16,673 nt of DNA, taken from UHGV virus genome UHGV-0183032; one strand, written 5' to 3'. Every line of letters begins with the position of its first letter. Positions within the stretch are counted from its first letter, which is position 1. The notes under the pieces were generated by a model. The model was not told the origin of the DNA. It worked only from the letters and a program-made list of their open reading frames with translations, and did not search any database. Positions 4,905-16,284 of the stretch are shown one piece after another. This stretch comes from a virus. Both the position numbers and the translations under genes were made by a program.

Positions 4905-5394
4905 GAGTATTGTACTCCTTATTCAGGTTATCGATTATCTCAAGGACAGTAGTCTGATTTACTTCTACCTGGACGGGTGCTTCTTCCTTGTTACCGACGA
5001 TCTCCTGTGTGACGCGTTCGCCGTATTTGCGCGGTTGTAGCTTAGCCAATAACCATTTACGCGTTTCAATCATTAATTGGTGGCGGCGTAGTTGGTCTTT
5101 ATCAACGTTCTTAGCATCATCAGCTATATCGAGGATCTCATCAGCTAATACCTCGAAGCCGATTTCCTTCGCGCGCATGTACATGTCCGAGAATTCCGGC
5201 ACGTCTCTAAACCATTTCAGGATTGTTGAACGGGTAGGCATACCAGGCATCTTCGAAATTTTGTTAACGCTCTGACCGTCCGCCACCAGTTCACAGATTT
5301 CTAACGCCTTTTCTTCGGTATAACCATGCGGACGGCCCACCCTTTTTGCGGCTGGCTTTTTGTCGTCAGCTTTTGCCTTTTTAGTGCGGGCCAT
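4879..5394 (-). CDS. terS: Terminase small subunit (DNA-binding, packaging recognition)
   Basis: 171 aa with a basic N-terminus (KKAKADDKKPAAKRVGRP) followed by an HTH-like segment. Its 3' end overlaps the terL start by 26 nt. GAGAGGTG RBS before ATG 5394. Confidence 0.75.
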   Translation of the reverse strand: MARTKKAKADDKKPAAKRVGRPHGYTEEKALEICELVADGQSVNKISKMPGMPTRSTILKWFRDVPEFSDMYMRAKEIGFEVLADEILDIADDAKNVDKDQLRRHQLMIETRKWLLAKLQPRKYGERVTQEIVGNKEEAPVQVEVNQTTVLEIIDNLNKEYNTHGDCDDKD

Positions 5395-5404
5395 AATTCA
5401 CCTC

Positions 5405-5488
5405 TCAATATTTATTGATGATATATACGCAAGCAACAAAACTTGCACAGTATGTTAATACTTCCAACCAATCGAATAATTCTTTCAT
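5405..5488 (-). CDS. Micro-ORF 9 of array: 27-aa single-helix hydrophobic peptide (MKELFDWLEVLTYCASFVACVYIINKY)
   Basis: ATG 5488-5486 with AAAGGT 6 nt upstream, TGA at 5407-5405, 10 nt before terS. Found by hand; below the 60-aa track threshold. Confidence 0.5.
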   Translation of the reverse strand: MKELFDWLEVLTYCASFVACVYIINKY

Positions 5489-5497
5489 TGTTTACCT

Positions 5498-5566
5498 TTA
5501 CGCGAAGAAAACAATAACAGTTAACAGCGTGCATATAGCCATGATTAAGAAATCACCATCAGACAT
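5498..5566 (-). CDS. Micro-ORF 8 of array: 22-aa hydrophobic peptide (MSDGDFLIMAICTLLTVIVFFA)
   Basis: ATG 5566-5564 overlaps the stop of micro-ORF 7 (ATGTCTGA); GGGGTG 9 nt upstream. Alternative internal ATG at 5542. Confidence 0.45.
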   Translation of the reverse strand: MSDGDFLIMAICTLLTVIVFFA

Positions 5567-5633
5567 TGATAATCACCCCAATAATAACTAATGCAACGGT
5601 ACACACGATCAACATAATATCAATAGCGTTCAT
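5559..5633 (-). CDS. Micro-ORF 7 of array: 24-aa hydrophobic peptide (MNAIDIMLIVCTVALVIIGVIINV)
   Basis: ATG 5633-5631 with GGTGA 5 nt upstream; TGA at 5561-5559. Confidence 0.5.
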   Translation of the reverse strand: MNAIDIMLIVCTVALVIIGVIINV

Positions 5634-5641
5634 GCTTTCAC

Positions 5642-5710
5642 CTATTGAGCAAGCGCGGTCATAGTGAGAACAATCGCAACGATCAGGAAAAAGAAATCAA
5701 GCCATTTCAT
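5642..5710 (-). CDS. Micro-ORF 6 of array: 22-aa hydrophobic peptide (MKWLDFFFLIVAIVLTMTALAQ)
   Basis: ATG 5710-5708 overlaps the stop of micro-ORF 5 (ATGA); GGGAG 8 nt upstream. Confidence 0.5.
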   Translation of the reverse strand: MKWLDFFFLIVAIVLTMTALAQ

Positions 5711-5787
5711 TTTTTAAACTCCCGATAAACATCTACGGCAATAACTGTAATAACAGCCACCAGCAATAGCATTTCGTATGCGTTCAT
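5707..5787 (-). CDS. Micro-ORF 5 of array: 26-aa hydrophobic peptide (MNAYEMLLLVAVITVIAVDVYREFKK)
   Basis: ATG 5787-5785 with GAAGG 9 nt upstream; TGA at 5709-5707. Confidence 0.5.
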   Translation of the reverse strand: MNAYEMLLLVAVITVIAVDVYREFKK

Positions 5788-5798
5788 TGTGGATACCT

Positions 5799-5873
5799 TC
5801 AGCTTTCAATGAATATCATGATCGCCAGCCATACAGCGACGCAGGCAGAAAGGATAATTAGCGGGTCAATCAT
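5799..5873 (-). CDS. Micro-ORF 4 of array: 24-aa hydrophobic peptide (MIDPLIILSACVAVWLAIMIFIES)
   Basis: ATG 5873-5871 with GGGGTGA 5 nt upstream; TGA at 5801-5799. Confidence 0.5.
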   Translation of the reverse strand: MIDPLIILSACVAVWLAIMIFIES

Positions 5874-5878
5874 ATTTT

Positions 5879-5989
5879 TCACCCCACCAAATACTTGATA
5901 TATACGTTTATCAGCGCAACTATAATAGAACCAGCAAGAAACACAGAAACGCCGATTAATCCGGCAATGATGTAAGCGTCCATAATCAT
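5879..5989 (-). CDS. Micro-ORF 3 of array: 34-36-aa hydrophobic peptide ((MI)MDAYIIAGLIGVSVFLAGSIIVALINVYIKYLVG)
   Basis: ATG at 5989 overlaps the stop of micro-ORF 2 (TAATG); the in-frame ATG at 5983 has GGAAG 8 nt upstream and gives an MDAY N-terminus like micro-ORF 2. Confidence 0.5.
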   Translation of the reverse strand: MIMDAYIIAGLIGVSVFLAGSIIVALINVYIKYLVG

Positions 5990-6051
5990 TACTTCCACAA
6001 CAAAAACAATATTACAGCCGCCGCCATTCCGATAAATAAATAAGCGTCCAT
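5989..6051 (-). CDS. Micro-ORF 2 of array: 20-aa hydrophobic peptide (MDAYLFIGMAAAVILFLLWK)
   Basis: ATG 6051-6049 lies 2 nt after the stop of micro-ORF 1; TAA at 5991-5989. Shares the MDAY..G motif with micro-ORF 3. Confidence 0.45.
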   Translation of the reverse strand: MDAYLFIGMAAAVILFLLWK

Positions 6052-6053
6052 AA

Positions 6054-6143
6054 TCAGTCTCGCATAGACATAACTACCAGAAACAGGCAAAGGATGAATC
6101 CAGCCGCCATCCCGCCGACGAAAGTTAGTATTGACGCAATCAT
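6054..6143 (-). CDS. Micro-ORF 1 of array: 29-aa hydrophobic peptide (MIASILTFVGGMAAGFILCLFLVVMSMRD)
   Basis: ATG 6143-6141 sits 2 nt after the TGA of the HExxH gene (TGAttATG) with GAGG 8 nt upstream; codons checked by hand. Confidence 0.5.
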   Translation of the reverse strand: MIASILTFVGGMAAGFILCLFLVVMSMRD

Positions 6144-6145
6144 AA

Positions 6146-6688
6146 TCAGCCTCGTTTAAAACTCATAACACGCGGTACAAGCGCTTCTTTTGCTTTCGGC
6201 TTACGTTTACCTTTCTTCGCTGGCTTTTCTTCTTCCTTCGGCTGTTCTGCCTGTTCCAGCGCCTGATCGACGACTTCTGCCGCCTGCATTGCTGCAACCT
6301 GTGCTTCGTTTGATTCTGCTAGGATAGGGAAAAACGCATCGAAGATACGGCCTACCATGTAAGCGTAAGTCTCATTCGCCGGATGGGTAGGATCCGTGGT
6401 AGCCACGACGCCTACATCACTTAAAACGTGGAATGTAGTGTGGGCGCATTCATGGACCAGCGTTCCCAACTCATTGTTGAATACTGCGATCACGTAGAAG
6501 TTACCACCATTCTCGCCAGTGCAAGTAAGCGTTAATCCTCCAGCCAACTCGAAATCAGGTTCAATCGGAATTCCTGCCTTTTCGCAAAATTCATAGAACA
6601 TCTCGCGGGTCGGGCAAAAGAAAACGGTTGTATGCTCAAAGAGTGGGATCTTAAATTGAGGCAATTTAATGCCTTTAGCCTTAGCCAT
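6146..6688 (-). CDS. Hypothetical protein with HExxH zinc-metallopeptidase-like motif and Lys-rich basic C-terminal tail
   Basis: 180 aa; motif VHECAHTTFH; C-terminal KKGKRKPKAK tail; AGGAG 9 nt before ATG 6688. Function inferred from the motif only. Confidence 0.7.
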   Translation of the reverse strand: MAKAKGIKLPQFKIPLFEHTTVFFCPTREMFYEFCEKAGIPIEPDFELAGGLTLTCTGENGGNFYVIAVFNNELGTLVHECAHTTFHVLSDVGVVATTDPTHPANETYAYMVGRIFDAFFPILAESNEAQVAAMQAAEVVDQALEQAEQPKEEEKPAKKGKRKPKAKEALVPRVMSFKRG

Positions 6689-6967
6689 CAGAATAATCTC
6701 CTATTCTGAAAAATATAACCCCCGCAAAACTCGACACCGCAGGGAGTGAAAACAGTTATAAAACACTGAAAACGGCGCTTCATCAGTACCGTTTCCAGAA
6801 TTTTATAAAATTGGTGAATGGCGCTTTCTTCTACCCAGGTAGCGCCTGACCTGTTAATGGGACTGTTGATCCGGTATTACGTGTTTTTGACTATTCCGCC
6901 GTCGCTCGCGGGAAGGATTGGCCCGGTTATGGCTGGCTGGCGGAAACGGCGACACGTCCGCGCGCTG

Positions 6968-7438
6968 TTATTCTTTGCGTATGCACTGCGTTTTGATGTA
7001 GTCCTGTAATCCGGTGATCTTCGCGTCTTTCTCTTTTAGTTGTTCTCTGAGGGATAGATAATTTGATTGAGCACTGGCAGTAAGTCTACAGGTGGCTCCA
7101 TTAATGCTGCTGGCGGTTCCGGTGGCGTCGTGCACGTACACTGGCTCGGCGTTGACGTGCAACCTGATAGCACCGCTATCAATGCCAGCGCGAAGATCGG
7201 CAATGTCAGATCTGATAGCTTTAATCTCATCGTGATACCTCTTATCAAGTTTTGACAGTTCGGCGTTTCGCTCCTTCATCTGCTGGATAGTGTTACTTGC
7301 TGTTTTTAGTGCGCCTTTCGTCACCGTGACTTCTTCCTGTAACCTTGCCGCCTCACCCTGGTAATAACACGTTACGGCGGTAAGCCCGGCAATAATGCAA
7401 ACAACAACGGCGATGATTAACGTCTTCACCTTGTCCAT
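6968..7438 (-). CDS. Rz: Rz-like i-spanin (inner-membrane spanin subunit)
   Basis: 156 aa with an N-terminal TM helix ([16 protein letters not shown]) and coiled-coil periplasmic domain. Follows the endolysin and contains an embedded +1-frame lipoprotein ORF. Confidence 0.85.
7036..7230 (-). CDS. Rz1: Rz1-like o-spanin (outer-membrane lipoprotein), embedded in Rz
   Basis: 64 aa from ATG 7230 ([24 protein letters not shown]...); lipobox LSGC; Pro-rich mature part. Wholly inside Rz in another frame. The track start at 7248 is TTG. Confidence 0.8.
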   Translation of the reverse strand: MRLKLSDLTLPIFALALIAVLSGCTSTPSQCTCTTPPEPPAALMEPPVDLLPVLNQIIYPSENN

Positions 7439-7917
7439 GTTTCACCCCATTCGCAAACGGCATATTCAACATCACGGCGGTTAATTAACCCTTGCCACTG
7501 CTTACCACCAGCATATATCCAGCGTTTAAGCTGTGCGCACGCCTCCGATTTCTTGCCGTCATTGAGTAGCTTCAATAATGTTGATGTTTTGAAGTTGGTA
7601 GCGCCTACGTTATAGGCGAATGAATAAAGCGCCGCGCGGGTAAAATCTGATATTTCGACTTTAATATATGGGTCAATCGCTTTTGCGGTTTTGTGGAGAT
7701 CTTTGTTTAACAAAGCATCGCATTCTGATTGCGTGTAAGTTTTACCCAGCATAATGTCTTTTCCGGTGTGACCATAACATACAGTCCATACACCGATAGC
7801 ATCACGATACGGATCGTACTCCACGCCTTCTAATGGTTTAACCATCACAGCCGCAATAGCGATCGCCCCGCCAGCCGCCGCAGCAATAATCTTGTTTTTC
7901 AGCGATTGGCTAATCAT
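7426..7917 (-). CDS. SAR endolysin (T4/P21-type lysozyme, GH24) with N-terminal signal-anchor-release domain
   Basis: 163 aa. Gly/Ala-rich weakly hydrophobic N-terminus ([18 protein letters not shown]), then [23 protein letters not shown], which is closely similar to the phage 21 R21 lysozyme as recalled. Confidence 0.9.
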
Positions 7918-8118
7918 TTACTTATTCCCCATTCGCGCGTCGTGTTCCTCTTGCGCTCGCTTGTTCTCCTGTGATTTGAAGTAATAGTTAACGGCAAATG
8001 TGCCTACGGTTGATAAGATACCCACAAAGACGGCAATGTCATTGATGGTTATCGCGCCGAAAAAAGCAGTTACGGCCCCAGTCACATACGCGCACGCCTC
8101 CCGTATTTTGTCGAACAT
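7918..8118 (-). CDS. Holin, two-TM class II (pinholin-like)
   Basis: 66 aa with two hydrophobic helices and a charged C-terminus (KSQENKRAQEEHDARMGNK). Immediately upstream of the SAR endolysin; GGAGG 7 nt before ATG 8118. Confidence 0.8.
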   Translation of the reverse strand: MFDKIREACAYVTGAVTAFFGAITINDIAVFVGILSTVGTFAVNYYFKSQENKRAQEEHDARMGNK

Positions 8119-8130
8119 AGATTTTCCTCC

Positions 8131-8160
8131 AACAAAGCAAAAACCCGGCGCGGGGCCGGG
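8131..8160 (-). terminator. Intrinsic terminator on the minus strand, directly upstream of the holin RBS (tR'-like)
   Basis: Minus strand reads CCCGGC-cccgc-GCCGGG followed by TTTTTGCTTTGTT: 6-bp GC stem, 5-nt loop, U-tract. About 13 nt separate it from the holin RBS. Confidence 0.6.
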
Positions 8161-8188
8161 TAATTACAATTTCGCATTGTTAGGAAAT

Positions 8189-8217
8189 ATTTTAATCTGT
8201 TTGTTTACGCCCTACAA
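8189..8217 (-). promoter_or_regulatory. Candidate sigma70-type promoter (late promoter P_R'-like) upstream of the terminator
   Basis: Minus strand TTGTAG, 17-nt spacer, TAAAAT; would give a roughly 50-nt leader ending at the hairpin. The -35 element is weak. Confidence 0.3.
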
Positions 8218-8224
8218 ATACGGC

Positions 8225-8401
8225 TTACGGCTTTCTATATATCAGGCCGTTATCAAGCAACATTTGCATATGCCGCCGATCCATGTCGCTTGATTCCCAA
8301 TGTGGATCGTCATCAGGTCTTATCATCACCTTATTACCTTTAAGTAAATAGACGATGTTAAATACCTTATGCAAATAGATACCATCTTCGATCTCGTTCA
8401 T
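8225..8401 (-). CDS. Hypothetical small protein, 58 aa (MNEIEDGIYLHKV...)
   Basis: Found by hand, codons verified. ATG 8401 overlaps the stop of the upstream ORF (ATGA). N-terminus IEDGIY resembles its upstream neighbour. Confidence 0.5.
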   Translation of the reverse strand: MNEIEDGIYLHKVFNIVYLLKGNKVMIRPDDDPHWESSDMDRRHMQMLLDNGLIYRKP

Positions 8402-8577
8402 AGGTCGCTAACCCTCACCAGTTCACCAGCATCAAGAAATATTTTAATTGTTTCTCGCGTCGTCTTAATGATTGGCGCTACCCACTCACCACCGCCAACG
8501 CGGATGCGAATATCATCACCTTCTACGCGGTAAAACAGCCCGTCTACTACTGTTGCGTACACCCCATCTTCAATCAT
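8398..8577 (-). CDS. Hypothetical small protein, 59 aa (MIEDGVYATVVDGLFYRVEGDD...)
   Basis: Found by hand, codons verified. AGGAG 8 nt before ATG 8577, which overlaps the stop of the upstream membrane ORF (ATGA). Confidence 0.55.
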   Translation of the reverse strand: MIEDGVYATVVDGLFYRVEGDDIRIRVGGGEWVAPIIKTTRETIKIFLDAGELVRVSDL

Positions 8578-8771
8578 TTCTTGCGCTCCTTAATAGCTCG
8601 ATTGATCTGCCCTGCCGTAGCGTCGAAGAAAGCGATAAACACAGTCACAGGCCAAAAAGGAATCTCAAGGCCGCCAGGTTCAGCTCCGCTAAACTTAATA
8701 AAACAAGACATCAGGATAGCGCCAGCGATATAAAGCAAAACAATCACAGCTATAAGGCATTCAATCATCAT
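8574..8771 (-). CDS. Small membrane protein, about 65 aa with two predicted TM helices
   Basis: ATG-ATG at 8771/8768 overlaps the stop of the upstream acidic ORF; GAGGG upstream. Helices IECLIAVIVLLYIAGAILMSCF and IPFWPVTVFIAFF. The track's longer form (start 8861) overlaps the upstream gene and is rejected. Confidence 0.55.
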   Translation of the reverse strand: MMIECLIAVIVLLYIAGAILMSCFIKFSGAEPGGLEIPFWPVTVFIAFFDATAGQINRAIKERKK

Positions 8772-9012
8772 CGCCCTCGTCTTCATGTTCAGCCAGGAAA
8801 TCATCAACGGCACGGTAAGTAACTGGAGGGATGTATTCGAAATCATCAGAATCAAGATCAAGCGTCCTGCTGTCGCCGTCGTCGTCCATCGTATTCATCC
8901 CTAACTCACCGAAAGGGCCGTACCCAATGTGGCCCAGGTATTCGCAACCAATCGTAAACCCAGGGTATTCGCCTTTACACCGGATCTTGTAAGGTTTATT
9001 TGATGCGCTCAA
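8761..9012 (-). CDS. Hypothetical protein with extremely acidic C-terminal half
   Basis: 83 aa from a TTG start at 9012 with strong GGAGGGGTGG RBS just upstream; alternative ATG at 8898 gives a 45-aa acidic peptide. C-terminal half is extremely acidic (DDDGDSRTLDLDSDDFEY...AEHEDEGDDD). Confidence 0.5.
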   Translation of the reverse strand: MSASNKPYKIRCKGEYPGFTIGCEYLGHIGYGPFGELGMNTMDDDGDSRTLDLDSDDFEYIPPVTYRAVDDFLAEHEDEGDDD

Positions 9013-9319
9013 TTTCCACCCCTCCGTTTTCGCCTTCAGTCACTTTGTATTCTGCCGCCAGTTCAGCGCCAAGCAATTCCACTTCCATATTAGCGATACC
9101 CTGGAACATCAGATAGGCAAAAACTAGGCTTTTAATTCTATCCGGGTCTTCAAGATGGTCTGCATTAAAAGGCGGTTCCGATACGTGGAAGCATTTAACA
9201 TGCGCATCGTCTTCAGTGGCTACACGGAAACATGCACTAGGTTGCCCGGCAAATTGTCCTAATCTTTCTTCGTTCGGTAAAGTGCCACGGAAAACTTTAA
9301 CGCTGATAAATTTAGACAT
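8996..9319 (-). CDS. Hypothetical protein, 107 aa
   Basis: ATG start verified; packed between neighbours in the island. Confidence 0.6.
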   Translation of the reverse strand: MSKFISVKVFRGTLPNEERLGQFAGQPSACFRVATEDDAHVKCFHVSEPPFNADHLEDPDRIKSLVFAYLMFQGIANMEVELLGAELAAEYKVTEGENGGVEIERIK

Positions 9320-9322
9320 TGT

Positions 9323-9577
9323 CTATTCTCCTTCGTAAAAAATAGCTACCAGTTCAGGATTGTTTAATGGGTTAGGGCAAGAATAAAAACCACTTCGCAA
9401 TAACCCCCTAAGCGCCTTTATTTTTCTGTGCACCGGGATTGACTCGCTTAAATAGAAATCATCTTTCCTTTTGTCATAAGGTAGCTCGTAAAACCTACCA
9501 TAATTTACGAATTGAACGACGCGGCAAAACTCACCGTCAGCCTTACTGTTGCCGCGCCATATTTTGATTATTTCCAT
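9323..9577 (-). CDS. Hypothetical protein, 84 aa
   Basis: ATG start verified; 3-nt gaps to both neighbours. Confidence 0.6.
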   Translation of the reverse strand: MEIIKIWRGNSKADGEFCRVVQFVNYGRFYELPYDKRKDDFYLSESIPVHRKIKALRGLLRSGFYSCPNPLNNPELVAIFYEGE

Positions 9578-9580
9578 AAA

Positions 9581-9880
9581 TTAAAACTCCGCACCAGGTA
9601 AGCTACGCGCTTTGTTTACCGTATCGTGCTTTAACAATAAACCAGCGTGATAATTCATAATCCCCATATTACCTACTGGTATTTCATCATTTTCTGCCTT
9701 TATTATTAACAACTGGTTTTTAGTGAAGATCCTGTCTCCATCAGTGATATATAACCAGTCGCCGCGCTTACCAACAACAACATGAGATCTGCCTAAGCTG
9801 TCTTTAAATTCATAATTACAGAAAACATCATCGTTAGGAACTTCAACAAAACAGCAAGCAATAAATTTAGCGCTTTTCAT
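9581..9880 (-). CDS. Hypothetical protein, 99 aa, possible distant member of the tandem small-protein family
   Basis: Start chosen at ATG 9880 (AAGGG 8 nt upstream); the track's ATG at 9910 lies inside a GC hairpin. Motif GDWLYITDGDRIF resembles the ITDDxGxLW motif of the 10.4-11.4 kb paralogs. Confidence 0.55.
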   Translation of the reverse strand: MKSAKFIACCFVEVPNDDVFCNYEFKDSLGRSHVVVGKRGDWLYITDGDRIFTKNQLLIIKAENDEIPVGNMGIMNYHAGLLLKHDTVNKARSLPGAEF

Positions 9881-9902
9881 GATTACACCCTTCTGATTTG
9901 AT

Positions 9903-9918
9903 GGGGCCATCCGGCCCC
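9903..9918. repeat. Perfect GC-rich hairpin (GGGGCC-atcc-GGCCCC) in a 43-bp intergenic gap
   Basis: 6-bp all-GC stem with 4-nt loop. A U-rich run follows on the plus strand (GTGTTTTAT), not the minus strand. Confidence 0.5.
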
Positions 9919-9923
9919 GTGTT

Positions 9924-10064
9924 TTATGCTTCTTCGTCTCCTTTAAACCCTAAGCACTCCGCGTACTCGTCAATGCTTAATGCTTCTTCACCTTGTGCCA
10001 GTAATTCAAAGTATCTTGCGTACAGTTCGAAAACCCAGGCCGGATATTTAGCGTTAGCGTTCAT
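9924..10064 (-). CDS. Hypothetical small protein, 46 aa (MNANAKYPAWVFELYARYFELLAQGEEALSIDEYAECLGFKGDEEA)
   Basis: Found by hand; GGGGG 6 nt before ATG 10064; fills the gap between neighbouring genes. Confidence 0.5.
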   Translation of the reverse strand: MNANAKYPAWVFELYARYFELLAQGEEALSIDEYAECLGFKGDEEA

Positions 10065-10074
10065 GGTTTCCCCC

Positions 10075-10353
10075 TTATGCCATACGTGCGAATTCAAGTG
10101 ATTTGCATTCGTAGTCTTCCTCTGCCTGTTCGATGACTGCCATCATCATTTCGTTTGCGTTGTTGAATGCGTTGCTTTGTGCGAACTTGTCGGCTCCACC
10201 TTCTTCTTCGAACTCCGCGTTGTTTGCTGCAATGTAGTGATATTCGATGTTGTTCAGGTAAGGGCTTGCAGCGTGTGCTGGGTCTTCTTTCTCCACCATC
10301 TCCCAAAATGCGTTTAAGCGAGATTCGACTTCTTTGTTAATCCAGCGTTTCAT
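10075..10353 (-). CDS. Hypothetical acidic protein, 92 aa; first gene after the predicted 10.4 kb promoter
   Basis: ATG 10353 with GGAGGG about 9 nt upstream; acidic composition (EFEEEGGAD, EQAEEDYE). Confidence 0.65.
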   Translation of the reverse strand: MKRWINKEVESRLNAFWEMVEKEDPAHAASPYLNNIEYHYIAANNAEFEEEGGADKFAQSNAFNNANEMMMAVIEQAEEDYECKSLEFARMA

Positions 10354-10388
10354 TTTTCTACCCTCCGCATCGTTCTCTCTTCAGCTTC

Positions 10389-10417
10389 TTTATAACAAAA
10401 TGGCACTGCCGAAACAA
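10389..10417 (-). promoter_or_regulatory. Candidate sigma70 promoter with extended -10 (minus strand)
   Basis: Minus strand TTGTTT, 17-nt spacer, TGt-TATAAA. Predicted start near 10382, about 30 nt before the RBS of the 10353 gene. Confidence 0.35.
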
Positions 10418-10425
10418 TGCCATTT
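10397..10425. repeat. Inverted repeat AAATGGCA-N12-TGCCATTT overlapping the candidate promoter (operator-like)
   Basis: Perfect 8-bp arms with 12-nt spacer. A GCCATTT-type motif recurs in the 16.4 kb and 6.8 kb gaps. Confidence 0.45.
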
Positions 10426-10434
10426 CGTAAACCT

Positions 10435-10450
10435 TGTGATACAGATCACA
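10435..10450. promoter_or_regulatory. Near-consensus CRP-type binding site (TGTGA-N6-TCACA)
   Basis: TGTGATACAGATCACA with flanking TT...TTT, matching the core of the Enterobacterial CRP consensus. Centred about 60 bp upstream of the predicted start. Confidence 0.4.
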
Positions 10451-10451
10451 T

Positions 10452-10676
10452 TTACGTTTCTTCCGTAAAAGTAACCTTCATCGCCCCATCCGAACTACGG
10501 ACAACATAACGACCAATACCGCCTAGCGGCCCTGCATACCATAAGTGACCGTAAGTGTCAGTCACGACGATAAACGGAAATTTAGGAGACAATCCCATCG
10601 GTTTTTCAGCCGTGTACTGTACGCCTTCCTCAAAACAGCCCAATTTCGATTCGTTACACGTTAAAATCATTTTCAT
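10452..10676 (-). CDS. Tandem small-protein family member D, 74 aa
   Basis: ATG 10676 overlaps the stop of member C (ATGA). Motif CFEEGVQY...IVVTDTYGHLWYAG. The track's longer Cys/Trp-rich form starts upstream and overlaps member C. Confidence 0.55.
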   Translation of the reverse strand: MKMILTCNESKLGCFEEGVQYTAEKPMGLSPKFPFIVVTDTYGHLWYAGPLGGIGRYVVRSSDGAMKVTFTEET

Positions 10677-10912
10677 ACCCCTACATACGAAAACGCAGCA
10701 AAAGCACCACCACCAGCACGCGCATAAACAAGCGCCGTGCCACAACCCATCTTATAAAATCGCCATAACTGCCCCTGGTCGTCAGTAATGGCATGAATAT
10801 ATTCCTGATCCTTTGCGTCAACCAATGCCGCGTCAACCTCGTAGATCTTGCCATTCTTAAAAAACGCGCTGCATCGTGAGTATGTGCACTGGTATCTATG
10901 TTTCCGATTCAT
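10673..10912 (-). CDS. Tandem small-protein family member C, 79 aa
   Basis: ATG 10912 with GAGGTG upstream. Motif FFKNGKIY...HAITDDQGQLWRFY; C-terminus GGGAFAAFSYVGV resembles member A. Confidence 0.6.
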   Translation of the reverse strand: MNRKHRYQCTYSRCSAFFKNGKIYEVDAALVDAKDQEYIHAITDDQGQLWRFYKMGCGTALVYARAGGGAFAAFSYVGV

Positions 10913-10922
10913 AGCACCTCAC

Positions 10923-11180
10923 TTATTCCGGTTTACTGCCTTCGCGGGCGCAAAACTCCGCGATCTCACGGAAATCATGCACTATGCGATAAATATACAA
11001 ACCAGCGGCGTTATTGATATGGCTAACATAAGCGAAATAAACTTTATCATCATCGCCAGTTATCGCCATTGCACCATCACCGCCCGGTGCGCCGTGGAGT
11101 TGAACGCCGCAATAGATCTTCCCTTCTTCAAAAATATTGCGGTCGCGCGTCTGCAATACCTCAAAATATAAATGTTTCAT
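10923..11180 (-). CDS. Tandem small-protein family member B, 85 aa
   Basis: ATG 11180 with GGGG 5 nt upstream (track start at 11216 is TTG). Motif IFEEGKIY...MAITGDDDKVYFAY. Confidence 0.6.
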   Translation of the reverse strand: MKHLYFEVLQTRDRNIFEEGKIYCGVQLHGAPGGDGAMAITGDDDKVYFAYVSHINNAAGLYIYRIVHDFREIAEFCAREGSKPE

Positions 11181-11190
11181 TGTTGCCCCT

Positions 11191-11403
11191 TTAATAACGT
11201 TCAAAGCTGGCAGCAAAACCTACACCGGATATTTCACCGCCTTCATAGCTCGGCCTGAATACCCATATTTCGTCATGATTATCAATCAAGGCAAGGCAAT
11301 TACTCATTGTGTGTGCTTCATTGCCATAAACGATGTGAACGTCATAAATACTCCCAATCGTGAAAACACTGTCATTGCTTGAGTATGAGCATTTAACTTG
11401 CAT
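11191..11403 (-). CDS. Tandem small-protein family member A, 70 aa
   Basis: ATG 11403 overlaps the upstream stop (TGATG). Motif VFTIGSIY...LALIDNHDEIWVF; C-terminus GVGFAASFERY. Confidence 0.6.
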   Translation of the reverse strand: MQVKCSYSSNDSVFTIGSIYDVHIVYGNEAHTMSNCLALIDNHDEIWVFRPSYEGGEISGVGFAASFERY

Positions 11404-11648
11404 CAGAAAACCCCTTTATAATCGACCGTGTATTTTGCTATCAGATTCCAGTCGCAGTAATTAAGCATGTCGCGAGGCTGCCAGCCTTTCATCCCGACCG
11501 CCCGCCGCGCAGCGTGACGGCGATAATCATCGTTATAGTCAGCTATGCACCACGGCTGGAGAACAAACATATAATTTGCTTCATTAACCAGGATAGCCAC
11601 CCGCTTTCCTGTTGCCTTGTCTTTTGCCCTGAAATAATTCACTTTCAT
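11403..11648 (-). CDS. Hypothetical protein, 81 aa
   Basis: ATG verified; overlaps the upstream gene by 4 nt. Confidence 0.6.
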   Translation of the reverse strand: MKVNYFRAKDKATGKRVAILVNEANYMFVLQPWCIADYNDDYRRHAARRAVGMKGWQPRDMLNYCDWNLIAKYTVDYKGVF

Positions 11649-11860
11649 TTTAATACCTCGTCGATCAGCATTTCTTCTTCCAGGTTAGCCGGACGTTTAC
11701 GGAATATCCCGGCAAAAACCAGGTCATCAAGTAGGTCTTTGCGTTTAAATAGCCACTCTTTCATTATTACCCCGTCATCGCTGCGATATACGACGCCGTT
11801 TTTCAAAAAATAAAAAGTGCTGGTATTTGTTTGAAGGTATAAATCTTCGTAAACGTCCAT
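11645..11860 (-). CDS. Hypothetical protein, 71 aa, with FLKNGVVY...W motif reminiscent of the tandem family
   Basis: ATG verified; motif FYFLKNGVVYRSDDGVIMKEWLF. Confidence 0.6.
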   Translation of the reverse strand: MDVYEDLYLQTNTSTFYFLKNGVVYRSDDGVIMKEWLFKRKDLLDDLVFAGIFRKRPANLEEEMLIDEVLK

Positions 11861-11864
11861 GATA

Positions 11865-12092
11865 TTAACCCTCGACTACTTGCAAGCCGCGCCCCTTATC
11901 GCCTACGAAGTCGCCCAGGCTAAACGTATATGACCACGCTGGGTTAATGTAGTAATCATCAGCACCGTGAGCGATAAGGTCTTTACCCAAAATGACGCAG
12001 GTCACATCATCAGAATGAACAACGTCTACCGTTTCCCTTACCGCGCGTTTTAATGATGGGTAGCCGTGATCGTGCAAGAATTTAACTTTCAT
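11865..12092 (-). CDS. Hypothetical protein, 75 aa
   Basis: ATG verified; 4-nt overlap with the upstream gene. Confidence 0.6.
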   Translation of the reverse strand: MKVKFLHDHGYPSLKRAVRETVDVVHSDDVTCVILGKDLIAHGADDYYINPAWSYTFSLGDFVGDKGRGLQVVEG

Positions 12093-12376
12093 ATTTCTTT
12101 CCCTTTATAAGTAACAGCATCAGCGATCAACAATACCGCCAGCAATTCACCGTCATGTAACGGGTCTGGAATAGCAAAAAATATGTCGCTGTTTTTGTCC
12201 GGCACTACTACGCGCATATTTCCCTGTTTGTCTTCATGCACGAACCACGGCTTTTCGTGTGGCTCAAACATGCCGAAAAGTAATTTAAGATCTATTTCTT
12301 CACCCTTCGTGAATAACGACACATCAGTTGTAGTGATAACTAACGCTTTCTGATCTGCTGTTTTCTTCGCTCTCAT
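12089..12376 (-). CDS. Hypothetical protein, 95 aa
   Basis: ATG verified; 4-nt overlap with the upstream gene. Confidence 0.6.
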   Translation of the reverse strand: MRAKKTADQKALVITTTDVSLFTKGEEIDLKLLFGMFEPHEKPWFVHEDKQGNMRVVVPDKNSDIFFAIPDPLHDGELLAVLLIADAVTYKGKEI

Positions 12377-12606
12377 TCCTCTGTCTCCCAGCGGTCTATG
12401 CTGATTAAAAAGTCCCGGATAGCGTGTCGCTCGTCGCGCGTCGGTTTACGCTTCCGGTAAATTTTGAAATCGAACCATTCTTTTTCTTGTTCGAAGTCCA
12501 GATCGTAAGCAAGCGCCTCGATATATCCGCAGTCGTGATACTGGTAAGCCACGCCAGCACGAACAAAAAAGCGGGTTTTATCCCGCTTGTGTTCATAGAT
12601 ACACAT
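12373..12606 (-). CDS. Hypothetical protein, about 77 aa
   Basis: Start chosen at ATG 12606 (GGGG upstream, no overlap with the upstream gene) rather than the track's ATG 12651, which overlaps by 35 nt and has GAAGG abutting the ATG. Confidence 0.5.
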   Translation of the reverse strand: MCIYEHKRDKTRFFVRAGVAYQYHDCGYIEALAYDLDFEQEKEWFDFKIYRKRKPTRDERHAIRDFLISIDRWETEE

Positions 12607-12616
12607 ATTTGCCCCA

Positions 12617-12847
12617 CTATGCAGTTGTGTAACTATCAACCAGCTTTTCATCCTTCATTCTGGAAAGCTGCATGATATTCATCGTGTAGCCGTTGTCAGA
12701 GAAAAGCCACTCCGCAGCCTTGCGACGAAAAACAATATCATCATGGTTACGTGTCCATGTAGCTATCACAACGCGTTTCCCGTTAGTGGCGAACATAGAT
12801 AACGCGTTATCAACTACGTCGATAGCCTGCCAGATTTTTAGTTCCAT
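12617..12847 (-). CDS. Hypothetical protein, 76 aa
   Basis: ATG verified. Confidence 0.55.
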   Translation of the reverse strand: MELKIWQAIDVVDNALSMFATNGKRVVIATWTRNHDDIVFRRKAAEWLFSDNGYTMNIMQLSRMKDEKLVDSYTTA

Positions 12848-13203
12848 GATTTATCTCCGTAGATTTTGAATAGTTCACACGCTTCCTGATTTTCAAGTAT
12901 ATTCATATGCAGGTCACGCAGGCGGCGCATTGTGCGGAATCGCGGTCTGAACTCCTGGCTACGTTTAATGTATTTGCCGCCAATTGAATAAATATGCCCG
13001 TATGCGTACCATCTGTTGCCTACCCATATATCATATTCTTTTCCTTCGTAATTAAATTTTATAGTTAGCTCGCCTACTTCAACTATTAACCCTTTATCAA
13101 TGATGTCATTAAGCATTTCGTCCCATTCTTTGAGGAATGGTTGCTGATAAAAACCAAAAAGCGTATTTGCAGCATGGCAAAGATAATCAATGATTATTTG
13201 CAT
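12838..13203 (-). CDS. Hypothetical protein, 121 aa
   Basis: ATG verified; largest ORF of the island. Confidence 0.65.
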   Translation of the reverse strand: MQIIIDYLCHAANTLFGFYQQPFLKEWDEMLNDIIDKGLIVEVGELTIKFNYEGKEYDIWVGNRWYAYGHIYSIGGKYIKRSQEFRPRFRTMRRLRDLHMNILENQEACELFKIYGDKSWN

Positions 13204-13207
13204 ATTA

Positions 13208-13420
13208 TCACCACATCATGTAATAAACGTTCTCGTCAGCTAATGCGTCCGCTACATCCTGCGTCATGTGCCTGGCTTCAAGGAAAAAATCCTCATCATG
13301 CCATTCACTAACAAGCATACGCGCCCATTTACGGCGGCGGCGCTTATTGTGTCGTAGATCATCAAAAGTCATTAATGCTTTGTCATATGCCCTTACAAGG
13401 CGTTTACGGTTACTTTTCAT
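13208..13420 (-). CDS. Hypothetical basic protein, about 70 aa
   Basis: Start chosen at ATG 13420 (AAGGTGG 8 nt upstream; ATGA overlap with the upstream stop); the track start at 13444 is TTG. Arg/Lys-rich (NKRRRRKWAR). Confidence 0.55.
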   Translation of the reverse strand: MKSNRKRLVRAYDKALMTFDDLRHNKRRRRKWARMLVSEWHDEDFFLEARHMTQDVADALADENVYYMMW

Positions 13421-13725
13421 TGCTCGACCCACCTTAACATCCAATTCACATCACATTTAATTGCGAATACTCTCACCGGATCAGTGCCGAATAATGGATG
13501 TGTGATAGTTTTCACTTCGTACCCAAAATAAGGAAGGTTAATAATCCTGTGTTTTTCGTGGTTGGCAGGGTATCCCCATTTAATAATCAGGCGCTCATAT
13601 TCCCGCCCTTCCAGACGTTTACGCCAATAGTCATTATAAAGCCGGTATTCCTCCACCTTCTTTCCCGCCCGGATAGCGTGGAAATATTCCCCTTTCAGAT
13701 TCAAATGCAGGTCTTTACTTGCCAT
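13417..13725 (-). CDS. Possible ASCH/PUA-like fold protein, about 102 aa
   Basis: Start chosen at ATG 13725 (AGGA 8 nt upstream); the track start at 13761 is TTG. N-terminus LHLNLKGEYFHAIRAGKKVEEYRL resembles the ASCH/DUF3850 signature from memory. Confidence 0.5.
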   Translation of the reverse strand: MASKDLHLNLKGEYFHAIRAGKKVEEYRLYNDYWRKRLEGREYERLIIKWGYPANHEKHRIINLPYFGYEVKTITHPLFGTDPVRVFAIKCDVNWMLRWVEQ

Positions 13726-13990
13726 CGCTATGATCCTGTAAACAGTCGTTATAGCCTTCAATATATCCGGTTAATCCGGTATTACTCACTGACCATTCAG
13801 CAGAACGGCGCTTGATGGCCTCGTCCATCGTGATTTCACCTTTGCGATGACATCCGGTATCAATGTAACGGTTGACAACTGAAGATAACCGCCCGCGTAG
13901 CTGTTGTGTTCCGGCGTAATGACGGGCCGTTTCCGTCAGATCGTTAACCAACTGGCGGTAAATATGCTCTTTTAATTTAGGCTTCATCAT
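13715..13990 (-). CDS. Hypothetical protein, about 91 aa
   Basis: ATG-ATG at 13990/13987 with GGTGA upstream; the track start at 13999 is GTG. Confidence 0.55.
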   Translation of the reverse strand: MMKPKLKEHIYRQLVNDLTETARHYAGTQQLRGRLSSVVNRYIDTGCHRKGEITMDEAIKRRSAEWSVSNTGLTGYIEGYNDCLQDHSDGK

Positions 13991-14177
13991 CGTCACCACG
14001 CTTGTAAATTTTTACAGGCTTAATAGGGATGGCGGGCAATTCGCCTTCATTTAACGCGCTTGCCATACCCAATATTAAGCGTGCTTCAGCACCAGTGACC
14101 TTCTTACACCATGCGCCGCCTGTTTTATCTTCGAATAAGATAACGGCAAACTGATCGTTTATTTCCAGCTTATCCAT
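13977..14177 (-). CDS. Hypothetical protein, 66 aa
   Basis: ATG 14177 lies 1 nt from the stop of the Q-like gene. Confidence 0.6.
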   Translation of the reverse strand: MDKLEINDQFAVILFEDKTGGAWCKKVTGAEARLILGMASALNEGELPAIPIKPVKIYKRGDDDEA

Positions 14178-14905
14178 TATTCACCCCGTGTCACTCGTTT
14201 GATTTCGCTTTCCGCGCGGGCCTCTTCTTTGAATAGCTCCGCTATGGCGTCTTCATAGAAAACCCGGTATTTCTTCCACCATGTTGATCGGCTTACCGGA
14301 AAAACAAGCTGATTAACCGCCTGCCGGACGAGATCTACCGGGAAACGCGAGTACCCACGCCCGCCGCAATGCTGGCACGTTTTGAATACTGGCATTTCCG
14401 CCGCTTCGCTGGCTGCTTTATCCGGTACTTCGCCACGGCCCTTACACCGCTGGCAATGGTTTTTAACGTAGCCTTTGCCGCCGCACCGTGCGCAAATTGT
14501 TGATGTGTATTTGCAATATGGATTTGGTAAATGCCCGTGACCGCCGCACTTAGGGCAAACTTTTTCGGTCGCTGCACTCTGGCAGTAATCCCGAAACGCG
14601 AAAACGGAAACAAGAATAATAAGATCATTGCGTTGTGCCTCGTTTAACTCCATCACGTATTCGTAATCTTTCGCCATAGCCCTTAAACGCTCTGTAAGCA
14701 AAACTACGGCCCTGTGTTTTTCGGCTTGTGATAGTTCCATCTTCCCTAAAAAAGCGCTATATCCAAGCTCTACGCGCGATTGCGCCATACCCGCAGCGGT
14801 TAGCGCATCCGTCGTATTAAGAGCGTCCGGGGACGTGCCCCGGCTTTCGTCAGATAATCGCGGTGATTTAGGAAAGTGGAATTTTAGAATGGATTCTAAA
14901 TTCAT
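14177..14905 (-). CDS. Putative late-gene antitermination protein Q-like, with four DnaJ-type CxxCxGxG zinc-finger repeats
   Basis: 242 aa with CPKCGGHG, CARCGGKG, CQRCKGRG and CQHCGGRG. Sits after the nin/RusA module, where lambdoid phages carry Q. Family assignment is from memory of Q-type proteins of enterobacterial prophages. Confidence 0.5.
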   Translation of the reverse strand: MNLESILKFHFPKSPRLSDESRGTSPDALNTTDALTAAGMAQSRVELGYSAFLGKMELSQAEKHRAVVLLTERLRAMAKDYEYVMELNEAQRNDLIILVSVFAFRDYCQSAATEKVCPKCGGHGHLPNPYCKYTSTICARCGGKGYVKNHCQRCKGRGEVPDKAASEAAEMPVFKTCQHCGGRGYSRFPVDLVRQAVNQLVFPVSRSTWWKKYRVFYEDAIAELFKEEARAESEIKRVTRGE

Positions 14906-15087
14906 TATTTGCCCTCATAACGTGCCGCCAGACGTTTACGATCAGAAATGGATTGCACCAGCTTTCTTTCGAACTCTTTCAGCGCAAGTAATTCGCGCAT
15001 GTGGAAAGCCTGGATTTGTCGGACCGTCTCTAAATCACGCTCGTCGCGCTGAATATCTATTTGCAGATCTTTAACTTCGTTTTTCAT
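14905..15087 (-). CDS. Hypothetical small coiled-coil protein, 60 aa
   Basis: ATG 15087 overlaps the rusA stop (ATGA); its stop overlaps the Q-like start (TAATG). Confidence 0.55.
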   Translation of the reverse strand: MKNEVKDLQIDIQRDERDLETVRQIQAFHMRELLALKEFERKLVQSISDRKRLAARYEGK

Positions 15088-15491
15088 TGCTCACCCCACA
15101 TATTAGTCGCGTATTCGTCAATATCCGGTAGTAGGTCGCCGCGTTCGCGGATCTTAATAAACAAGCGTCCGCCTTTTACCTTCCGGCAGCGGACAATTTT
15201 TATTGAGTCAATTTGCCCGTCATCCCTCCAGAATCCGGCATAAGTAAGGCTGTCAAAAAGGCATTTAGGGATATTATCCAGATCTCTGATCCGGTTATCC
15301 GGCGGCGCGGCGTAAATGGCAATTGCCAGTCGGCAAGGTAGGTTAATATTTAAATTTAATAGCTCGATGATGTCTCTTACTTGTTCCCTGTATTCCTTCC
15401 CCACTTTGCTGATATAGTGAAAACCGCGCGAATGTCGGTAATAGCGATTATTCGATGGCGGGTAAGGCAGGCTAAAAGAATATTCATTCAT
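15084..15491 (-). CDS. rusA: RusA-family Holliday junction resolvase
   Basis: 135 aa. N-terminus MNEYSFSLPYPPSNNRYYRH and internal RDLDNIPKCLFDSLTYAGFWRDD match the conserved RusA signature. Confidence 0.8.
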   Translation of the reverse strand: MNEYSFSLPYPPSNNRYYRHSRGFHYISKVGKEYREQVRDIIELLNLNINLPCRLAIAIYAAPPDNRIRDLDNIPKCLFDSLTYAGFWRDDGQIDSIKIVRCRKVKGGRLFIKIRERGDLLPDIDEYATNMWGEQ

Positions 15492-16093
15492 GCTGCCTTT
15501 CTCCTTAAGGCGTCCAATTTAGCCTGATAGATGTTTATTAGCTCCTTACATTCTGCGATCGTCCATTTATGCGTATCATTGTTGTTTTCCAGCGCTACCA
15601 CCCTGGCGAGGCCAATTTTTCGAATCAGTGCCGGGCGATACCCTCCTATGTTCCCGTCTAATGTCTGGTTGCAGTGCCTGCATTGTTTATGGCAATTATC
15701 CTCGTTAAAGCGAAGATGTCCGGCGGCGGCTACCGTCCTGTAATGACCTGCATCCCACCCGCATTGCTCACCGTAGTAAGTCCCGCAAGATATACACGGC
15801 AAGCGCGCGTCACGTTCGCGAATATAGGCGTTAAATACATTTTGAACTTGTTTGATCCAATAACTACGCGGATTTAACTGTTTACGCTTCCGGTTGCGTT
15901 CTTCCCTCTGGCTATCACGGCGTTTCTTCCGCTCCATAGCCTTCATAGCCTTCTCACGGTCGCGGCATAACTGATCAAACTTCAGTTCTTCCAGACATTC
16001 ATCGCTGCACCACGTTTGATTGTGATATTTAGGCTCAAAAAAAACGCCGCAGCATTTGCAACGGCGTCTTATGGGTTTTTTAGGGTTTTGCAT
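15488..16093 (-). CDS. ninG: NinG/Rap-like recombination protein
   Basis: Start chosen at ATG 16093 (GGGGTGG 5 nt upstream; track start at 16183 is GTG). RRRCKCCGVFFEP, PRSYWIKQVQNVFNAYIRERDARLPCISCG, WDAGHYRT, LRFNEDNCHKQC and HKWTIAECKEL align with lambda NinG as recalled. Confidence 0.8.
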   Translation of the reverse strand: MQNPKKPIRRRCKCCGVFFEPKYHNQTWCSDECLEELKFDQLCRDREKAMKAMERKKRRDSQREERNRKRKQLNPRSYWIKQVQNVFNAYIRERDARLPCISCGTYYGEQCGWDAGHYRTVAAAGHLRFNEDNCHKQCRHCNQTLDGNIGGYRPALIRKIGLARVVALENNNDTHKWTIAECKELINIYQAKLDALRRKAA

Positions 16094-16107
16094 AAAAACC
16101 ACCCCGA

Positions 16108-16284
16108 TTATTTTTGATTCTCTGTTTCGTTCAGCCTTTCGGCGTGTCCGGCCCTTAGCCAATGTTCTAAGCATTCGTTGCACTCGTTACAGCCTCCCTT
16201 CTTCGTGCTGCATACATTGCACATTGCACGCATGACGCTTTCTCGTTCATAGTCGTCATGCCATTGGTAATTTTCGAAAGACAT
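16108..16284 (-). CDS. Small Cys-rich zinc-ribbon-like protein (NinF-like position), 58 aa
   Basis: Found by hand, codons verified. Cys pattern CNVC-x6-CNECNEC. Sits just upstream of ninG. Preceded by RBS AAAGGAGAG. Confidence 0.5.
   Translation of the reverse strand: MSFENYQWHDDYERESVMRAMCNVCSTKKGGCNECNECLEHWLRAGHAERLNETENQK

Follow-up and report, generated by a model that had tools for sequence, protein, structure and literature searches.

A long-form Q-lambda-family antitermination protein of an mEpimmI-type coliphage and a conserved candidate late-control element on the far side of a hypervariable island

The stretch of viral DNA analysed here (16,673 nucleotides of virus genome UHGV-0183032, hereafter the window) contains at 14177-14905, on the minus strand, a gene for a protein of 242 amino acids (aa). 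This protein is a full-length homologue of the antitermination protein Q of phage lambda (Q-lambda) and an ordinary long-form member of that family. Its counterpart in phage mEp021 (gp37, MH706966) is already annotated as 'putative late gene regulator Q', and the arrangement around the gene is a modest variant of the known one. Q is uncoupled from a compact, conserved module in front of the holin gene by a hypervariable island, and this uncoupling is real, extends over the phage group and has apparently not been discussed. The explanation that we favour, with moderate confidence, is a Q-lambda-family switch in which the early operon ends in the island and the late unit starts in the gap before the holin gene. 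Judging from its sequence, the element at 8217-8133 in that gap is probably the late promoter, Q-loading site and tR'-like terminator.

The Pfam scan matched the protein in two stretches to PF03589, 'Antitermination protein Q', with 103.1 bits (cut-off 26.7; E=9e-30), and phrog_127, 'anti-termination protein Q-like', covered its full length (E=3.5e-77). The best matches in PDB were the Q-lambda chains 7ubm and 7ubn (E=3e-36 for 7ubm_Q). Identity to Q-lambda is about 33 % and the alignment is collinear, aa 1-114 corresponding to lambda residues 1-114 and aa 150-240 to lambda residues 117-207. An AlphaFold2 model with 47 homologues as input had a predicted local distance difference test score (pLDDT) of 82.5. 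When this predicted fold was compared with PDB using Foldseek, all eight matches at E<=0.001 were Q-lambda structures, headed by 7ubn_Q, 7ubm_Q, 4mo1 and 7ubj-l with E-values down to 6e-14. The likeness to Q-lambda (PF03589; PDB 4MO1, 7UBJ-7UBN) takes in the N-terminal nozzle segment (residues 1-60), the four-helix body with its helix-turn-helix (HTH), the Cys4 zinc-ribbon arm and the C-terminal helix. In Q-lambda, the N-terminal part refolds with NusA into a nozzle at the RNA exit channel and touches the flap-tip helix of RNA polymerase (RNAP), where F52, L58, L202 and T206 have their roles (PMC9388147). F52 and L58 are identical in the 242-aa protein, T206 is matched by T239, and L202 is replaced by I235.

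A preliminary description of this DNA, made from the letters alone, had proposed a Q-like antiterminator in the Q position and had left room for the protein matching no Q family at all. The proposal was borne out by the PF03589 match, which at 103 bits is above the cut-off, by phrog_127 and the Q-lambda structures, and by the position of the gene after those of NinG and RusA. The suggested phage-82 type has to be replaced by the lambda type. At E<=0.01 the Pfam scan returned only PF03589, PF00684 and DUF5351, with no match to PF06323 (Q82) or PF06530 (Q21) (family codes as in PMC9388147), and a Q of the phage-82 or phage-21 type was ruled out because neither family was matched.

All four CxxCxGxG motifs that had been reported for this reading frame are exact (CPKCGGHG at aa 117, CARCGGKG at 138, CQRCKGRG at 151 and CQHCGGRG at 177). 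Q-lambda has such a pair of its own, CRDCHGTG and CGRCKGVG, which forms the zinc-ribbon arm. By alignment, motifs 3 and 4 are this canonical ribbon: their spacing of 26 residues is the same as in Q-lambda, and the strand-helix-strand predicted between them by AlphaFold2 resembles the lambda arm. Motifs 1 and 2 belong, on the same evidence, to an inserted module that is common in the family. The insertion (35 aa) falls between lambda residues 114 and 117, and Q-lambda lacks both it and the second CxxCxGxG pair.

Four CxxC motifs were found in 45 of 49 homologues of 240-282 aa, which include several thousand members from E. coli and all bear the name 'antitermination protein'. Retained to this extent, the four Cys pairs cannot be a matter of chance. 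When 52 full-length representatives of the family were taken from 50 %-identity clusters, 30 carried at least four Cys knuckles (CxxC or CxC) and 10 the lambda-like two. The same long architecture with four Cys pairs is seen in phi80 Q (gp17; 269 aa, the third pair as CxC), ES18 gp73, SE1 Gp23 and the Qin-prophage-type QuuQ. In the lambdoid long forms examined (phi80, P0012-P0046), the Cys pairs of motifs 1 and 2 are separated by 33-59 residues, vs 17 in the 242-aa protein. Among close homologues the spacing of motifs 2 and 3 is constant at 13 and that of motifs 3 and 4 at 26, while motifs 1 and 2 are separated by a variable 14-63 aa. In an internal alignment, motifs 1-2 were weakly similar to the module of motifs 3-4 (E=4e-6), which hints at a tandem duplication. 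Since motifs 3 and 4 keep the lambda spacing and motifs 1-2 align with them, zinc pairing in tandem appears favoured, rather than proved, over the nested pairing of DnaJ (1+4, 2+3). Residues 110-112, 117 and 122-126 of Q-lambda contact the zinc-binding domain of the RNAP beta-prime subunit (PMC9388147), and because these adjacent residues make that contact, the insertion is expected to lie at this interface.

Four CxxCxGxG repeats, presumably binding two zinc ions, are also the feature of the DnaJ central (CR) domain (PF00684, DnaJ_CXXCXGXG), and the preliminary description had considered that the fourfold motif might have another role, the protein being a DnaJ-like chaperone or having a generic DNA-binding domain instead of acting as an antiterminator. 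PF00684 did appear in the scan, with 29.1 bits against a cut-off of 32.7, DnaJ zinc domains in PDB gave weak matches (E=0.012-0.24), and one homologue from a Klebsiella phage is annotated as 'molecular chaperone'. However, neither a J domain nor the client-binding C-terminal domain of DnaJ (DnaJ_C) was matched in the Pfam scan of the protein, and the NCBIfam DnaJ models scored 20-23 bits against cut-offs of 338-377. The motif spacing is 21/13/26 in the 242-aa protein vs 17/22/14 in E. coli DnaJ. The alignment with Q-lambda extends over the entire protein and takes in both the N terminus that forms the nozzle and the HTH body, and the predicted fold has no significant structural match except Q-lambda. 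Moreover, Q-lambda itself has two of the motifs, and all four Cys pairs are present in a studied antiterminator, phi80 Q (the subject of Guo & Roberts 2004, as cited in PMC9388147). We concluded that a chaperone role is very unlikely and close to refuted by the family tests, and a DnaJ-like chaperone was ruled out on the sub-threshold motif match and the absence of the other DnaJ domains. Two of the motifs are accounted for by the Q-lambda ribbon and two by the insertion found in phi80 Q and the 30 of 52 representatives. For annotation, a fourfold CxxCxGxG in this context marks a common long-form Q-lambda protein and not a chaperone.

The Klebsiella phage homologue (ST13-OXA48phi12.4, MK422450.1, 26798-27604; H63) belongs to the Q-lambda family, and its 'molecular chaperone' label is likely a mis-annotation, presumably derived from the DnaJ-like motifs.

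The window comes from a temperate coliphage of the mEpimmI type, being 86-90 % identical in nucleotides to MagusPhagus, mEp010, mEp044, mEp554, mEp013, mEp515 and mEp021. The mEpimmI phages are a group of Nus-dependent, non-lambdoid gut coliphages and have been reported to use a Q-lambda-like protein (PMC11893012). The gene order is the same as in mEp021 and the group, and the protein is without essential difference from gp37. However, the island between Q and holin consists of 8 genes in 2.0 kb in mEp021 vs about 24 genes in 6.1 kb here. All genes of the window are on the minus strand, which the preliminary description, otherwise correct in its observations apart from the gene count, had not stated.

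The stop codon of Q overlaps the next start codon (TAATG), and 6,058 bp separate it from the holin ATG (8118). This space holds about 24 tightly packed or overlapping open reading frames (ORFs), slightly fewer than the roughly 27 counted earlier; the lack of a gap after Q was seen correctly. Gaps of more than 20 nt occur at only two places in this space, 10354-10451 (98 nt) and 8119-8224 (106 nt). None of the 23 island proteins scanned matched a Pfam family at the gathering cut-off, all PHROG matches were of 'unknown function', and the G+C content is slightly below that of the flanks. Each of the 40 related genomes that were examined has an island of 1.9-7.2 kb, varying in content and length. 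Among the phages, the space between Q stop and holin ATG ranges from 2.0 kb (mEp021 and mEp515) to 6.1 kb (MagusPhagus); in 32 complete E. coli genomes, the conserved element is 4.1-7.2 kb away from the Q stop. Even a metagenomic relative whose Q is 46 % identical shows NinG-RusA-61aa-Q in the same order, with 11 or more small genes packed without gaps behind Q. The 'very large moron insertion' suggested before is in fact a hypervariable region of the whole group and not a one-off event. Of the two alternatives that had been offered, the evidence favours a late promoter far from Q, although without the moron insertion that was attached to it. The island is probably transcribed early, rather than being a late 'moron' block.

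Two pairs of diverged paralogues with 28-29 % identity were seen in the island (8225-8401 and 8398-8577; 10673-10912 and 11191-11403), phrog_15318 and phrog_31142 each being matched twice, which suggests local duplication among the small genes. Inside a 92-aa ORF (12373-12651), a terminator-like hairpin with a T-run (AAGCGGG-ATAAAA-CCCGCTT TTTTGT) lies at 12569-12588 on the minus strand; it is an annotated terminator in mEp515 and mEp554. The gap at 10354-10451 contains a perfect CRP-consensus palindrome, TGTGA-N6-TCACA, at 10435-10450 (1 found vs 0.02 expected by chance). Its centre is about 60 bp upstream of a possible promoter (TTGTTT-N17-TATAAA), after which a conserved hairpin and T-run follow. 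The exact CRP site is shared with mEp044, and the hairpin is present in six relatives and absent from mEp021, mEp013 and mEp515.

The Q gene of lambda is followed by its promoter, and in phi80, ES18 and other long forms the promoter cassette lies 40-120 bp after the Q stop; here the distance is 1.9-7.2 kb. No conserved sequence follows Q in the window, and the cassette-like element (8217-8133) lies 5,982 nt downstream. Homology among the relatives ends exactly at the ATG after Q where the downstream gene differs, and this break, together with the overlap of stop and start codons, leaves no promoter directly after Q. The missing adjacent cassette is a feature of genome organisation and not of the protein family.

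In Stx-converting lambdoid phages the order is Q, pR', tR', cargo and lysis genes, and the cargo is expressed late and depends on Q. The window resembles them in having kilobases of accessory genes between Q and the lysis cassette. By analogy, the late promoter and Q-loading site could lie where Q ends or the next gene begins, the island would be late, Q-dependent 'moron' cargo, and the terminator at 8.15 kb would be one of several read through by the Q-modified polymerase. We consider this improbable. A lambda-like string, GTGACA-N16-TAAGCT-N7-AACGAT, does lie exactly there (~14200-14154), with a pause hexamer identical to that of lambda, and terminator-like hairpins are present within the island at 12588-12569 and ~10425-10395. 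However, the string is part of a coding region and is missing from mEp021, mEp515 and mEp044, where another gene follows, although Q is conserved in all of them; no terminator is found shortly downstream of it, and about 1.5 matches to the pattern are expected by chance per window. We rejected it for its loss in these relatives. In the Stx phages the site is directly after Q, while here no intergenic space is left between Q and the small genes and the conserved site is after the island.

Two further candidates were also discarded. mEp021, mEp013 and mEp515 lack the gap at 10354-10451, which contains an AACGAT and a hairpin, and this AACGAT is not conserved. In the string TAAAAT-N6-AACGGT (6805-6788), AACGG forms one side of the stem of a conserved hairpin (probably TERM_6 of mEp021), and there is no credible -35. 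When the relatives were compared, no other conserved non-coding site was found between Q and holin, and the element before holin is alone among the non-coding elements in being conserved in every relative.

In a metagenomic lambdoid prophage (L017, 10765-10929), a called 54-aa gene overlaps the end of Q and covers what seem to be a pR', an AACGAT pause element and a terminator. It is probably a spurious ORF call.

The element reads TTGTAG-N17-TAAAAT-ATTTCCT-AACAAT-N14-terminator. A strong G+C-rich hairpin with a T-run at 8161-8143 (fold energy -21 kcal/mol, z=-2.5) agrees with the terminator before holin that had been placed at about position 8.15 kb. This terminator is annotated in mEp021 (as TERM_5), mEp010, mEp013, mEp044 and mEp515, and probably corresponds to the 't5' of mEp021; t5 is listed as experimentally demonstrated (PMC11893012). 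Positions 8206-8119 are almost invariant in eight phages and show 93.7-100 % identity in the 32 E. coli genomes. Pairwise identity in the element is 94-97 %, vs 68-70 % just upstream and 86.5 % at third codon positions of holin. The element is kept both where the upstream gene is replaced and where the holin gene is replaced. In the E. coli prophages RM9245, N25 and E21845/O/A, the element and terminator are retained and the match ends before holin; in RM9245 (L019, 2480-2600) and N25 (L020, 2480-2600) a different, 70-aa holin of the 'HP1 family' follows. Since it is retained next to a different holin, the element behaves as a module separate from the lysis genes.

We also aligned seven other late promoters of the Q-lambda family (lambda, P22, phi80, mEp237, a metagenomic prophage, ES18 and Bp96115), all of which have a -10, 5-7 nt and AAC[AG]NT. 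Lambda and P22 read TAAATT-tgactc-AACGAT, phi80 (where pR', Q site and terminator are annotated) TAGATT-catctct-AACGCT, and ES18 TAATAT-cgtttct-AACAGT. The AACGAT of lambda is the sigma-dependent pause element at which Q loads (PMC9388147). The layout of -10, discriminator and AACxxT pause element is thus that of lambda, although the leader has 194 nt in lambda vs a candidate of about 40-45 nt here, and the -35 is weak here. With phi80, ES18 and Bp96115 the element shares a discriminator ending in CT, an AAC pause hexamer and the lack of a TTGACT-like element. The lambdoid Q proteins closest to this one are those of ES18 and Bp96115 (35-37.5 % identity), whose leader is also the most similar to the element (...TTTCT AACAGT AGAAAT...). 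A leader of 40-45 nt would not be implausible, as the annotated late terminator of P22 begins only 30 nt after the start site. Because the layout matches the seven promoters, the sequence resembles ES18 and Bp96115, and P22 has a similarly short leader, we read the holin-proximal element as the probable target of Q.

Several observations weigh against this reading. The -35 is poor (TTGTAG, 3/6 of the consensus), being TTGTAG, TTGTGG or TTGTAT in one sequence variant and replaced by TCGCGC in the other (MagusPhagus, LSU61, UMNK88 and N25). The element was not picked up by the standard promoter scan, and the pattern TANNNT-N6/7-AACRNT is not rare (2 found vs 1.5 expected for each spacing). No Q-binding sequence was independently recognised, so that AAACAAAYAGAT is a candidate only. 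The mEpimmI literature consulted, including PMC11893012, does not discuss a late promoter. Finally, the terminator by itself is no proof of a Q target, because transcription modified by the N-like Gp17 could read through it.

Another possibility is that Q is a genuine antiterminator loading elsewhere, the block before holin being the terminator at the end of the early operon plus the ribosome-binding region of holin. The late genes would then be reached through read-through by polymerase modified upstream by Q or Gp17. The weak or absent -35 is in keeping with this, as are the reported function of the terminator in mEp021 and the Gp17/nutR2 antitermination system upstream of the region (both PMC11893012). 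However, it leaves unexplained the 94 % conservation of the 45 nt upstream of the hairpin, which stay with the terminator where the genes on both sides have been exchanged, and a distance between -10 and pause element equal to that of the seven Q-lambda-family late promoters; nor is there another conserved non-coding site between Q and holin where Q might load. We regard it as unlikely, though somewhat less so than a site at the end of Q.

The 15-mer ATTAAAATATTTCYT, which includes the candidate -10, is present in two copies some 250 bp from each other (8448-8434 and 8196-8182, minus strand), and its upstream copy lies inside a 59-aa ORF and is seen only in relatives carrying that gene. A promoter-scan match at 8468-8441 (TTAAGA-N16-TAAAAT), also inside an ORF, was set aside as it occurs only in relatives with that gene. 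A boxB-like reading of the leader (ACAAT-GCGAA-ATTGT) was rejected, since T-to-C changes in relatives break the pairing without compensation.

With the element before holin as the target, Q would be the late-gene antiterminator of this mEpimmI-type coliphage and, by homology, would work as Q-lambda does. Its HTH body and zinc-ribbon arm would bind a DNA element in the late promoter, and Q would dock on RNA polymerase that sigma-70 holds paused at a -10-like element just past the start site. With NusA, the N- and C-terminal segments of Q would refold into a nozzle at the RNA exit channel and block terminator hairpins. Motifs 1 and 2 presumably make up an additional zinc module, inserted at the base of this arm, where Q-lambda touches the beta-prime zinc-binding domain. 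The early-right operon is proposed to run on past Q through the island, which would be co-transcribed and translationally coupled with Q. The late unit would start near 8181 in the 106-bp gap before holin, from the -10 TAAAAT and with a pause at AACAAT, and without loaded Q it would stop at the terminator (+21 to +40), leaving a leader RNA of about 40-45 nt. The distance over which Q would have to act in trans is about 6 kb here and 2-7 kb in the group.

For the group as a whole, we give about even chances to the wider view that Q and its loading site have become separated, with a hypervariable island of 2-7 kb always lying between them, that the promoter/pause/terminator module moves independently of its neighbours and Q acts purely in trans, and that the island is a recombination hot spot, between two conserved anchors, for accessory genes of the early phase that might serve host takeover or counter-defence. 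The Q switch has been described as a cassette in which the gene is next to its target, and in a prevalent group of gut coliphages the two seem to be separated by 2-7 kb. If the element before holin is indeed the target, the late-control module would be very compact (~85 bp, with a leader of 40-45 nt) and convenient for the study of long-form Q proteins and of the role of the extra zinc module. The island also marks where the mEpimmI group stores its accessory genes.

Table 1 Features of the window considered in this study, with positions, strand and the basis of each assignment
Feature	Position	Strand	Description	Basis
Q gene	14177..14905	-	242-aa long-form Q-lambda-family antitermination protein	Pfam, PHROG, PDB, AlphaFold2/Foldseek
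N-terminal segment, codons 1-60	14726..14905	-	Equivalent to the nozzle-forming, flap-tip-contacting part of Q-lambda	Collinear with lambda 1-60
Insertion, codons 115-149	14459..14563	-	35 aa relative to Q-lambda; motifs 1 and 2 (C117, C120, C138, C141), presumed second zinc site	Alignment gap
Zinc-ribbon 'arm', codons 150-185	14351..14458	-	Motifs 3 and 4 (C151, C154, C177, C180)	Equivalent to lambda C118, C121, C144, C147
Hypervariable island	8225..14177	-	~24 small ORFs of 57-121 aa without known domain, translationally packed behind Q
Weak -35 and spacer	8195..8217	-	TTGTAG (8217-8212) and 17-bp spacer	Alignments of 10-12 relatives
Candidate Q-binding element	8206-8195	-	AAACAAAYAGAT	Conserved -10-proximal 12-13 bp
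Candidate -10, discriminator and pause element	8176..8194	-	TAAAAT (8194-8189), 7-nt discriminator, AACAAT (8181-8176)
Intrinsic terminator	8133..8161	-	ACCCGGC-CCCGC-GCCGGGT and T-run	Terminator scan; ~+21 from predicted start
NinG/Rap	15488-16183	-		PF05766 (E=1e-66) and PHROG
RusA	15084-15491	-		PF05866 (E=8e-15) and PHROG
60-aa ORF	14905-15087	-	Upstream early gene
Lysis cassette, whole	6968..8118	-
Holin	7918-8118	-		ORF translation, relatives' annotation
Lysozyme	7426-7917	-		ORF translation, relatives' annotation
Rz	6968-7438	-		ORF translation, relatives' annotation
Rz1	within 7036-7248	-	Embedded in Rz	Lipobox LSGC

Upstream of Q, the genes of NinG, RusA and the 60-aa ORF overlap or abut one another and Q (14905..16183), and the terminase and portal genes come after the lysis cassette (Table 1). 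Rfam and tRNA scans of the window gave no matches. Between Rz and a 180-aa gene there is a non-coding block of 280 bp (6689-6967, minus strand), likewise without an Rfam match, which is almost invariant in eight phages save for a 58-bp indel. A hairpin within it, AAACGG...CCGTTT, has a constant stem and a variable loop and is probably the TERM_6 of mEp021 mentioned above. About nine tandem mini-ORFs of 20-35 codons, each encoding a single hydrophobic helix (e.g. MIASILTFVGGMAAGFILCLFLVVMSMRD, MDAYLFIGMAAAVILFLLWK and MKWLDFFFLIVAIVLTMTALAQ), fill the 750-bp 'gap' that separates the 180-aa gene from the small terminase gene (5394-6146, minus strand). Similar ORFs of 90-170 nt are annotated in the equivalent region of relatives.

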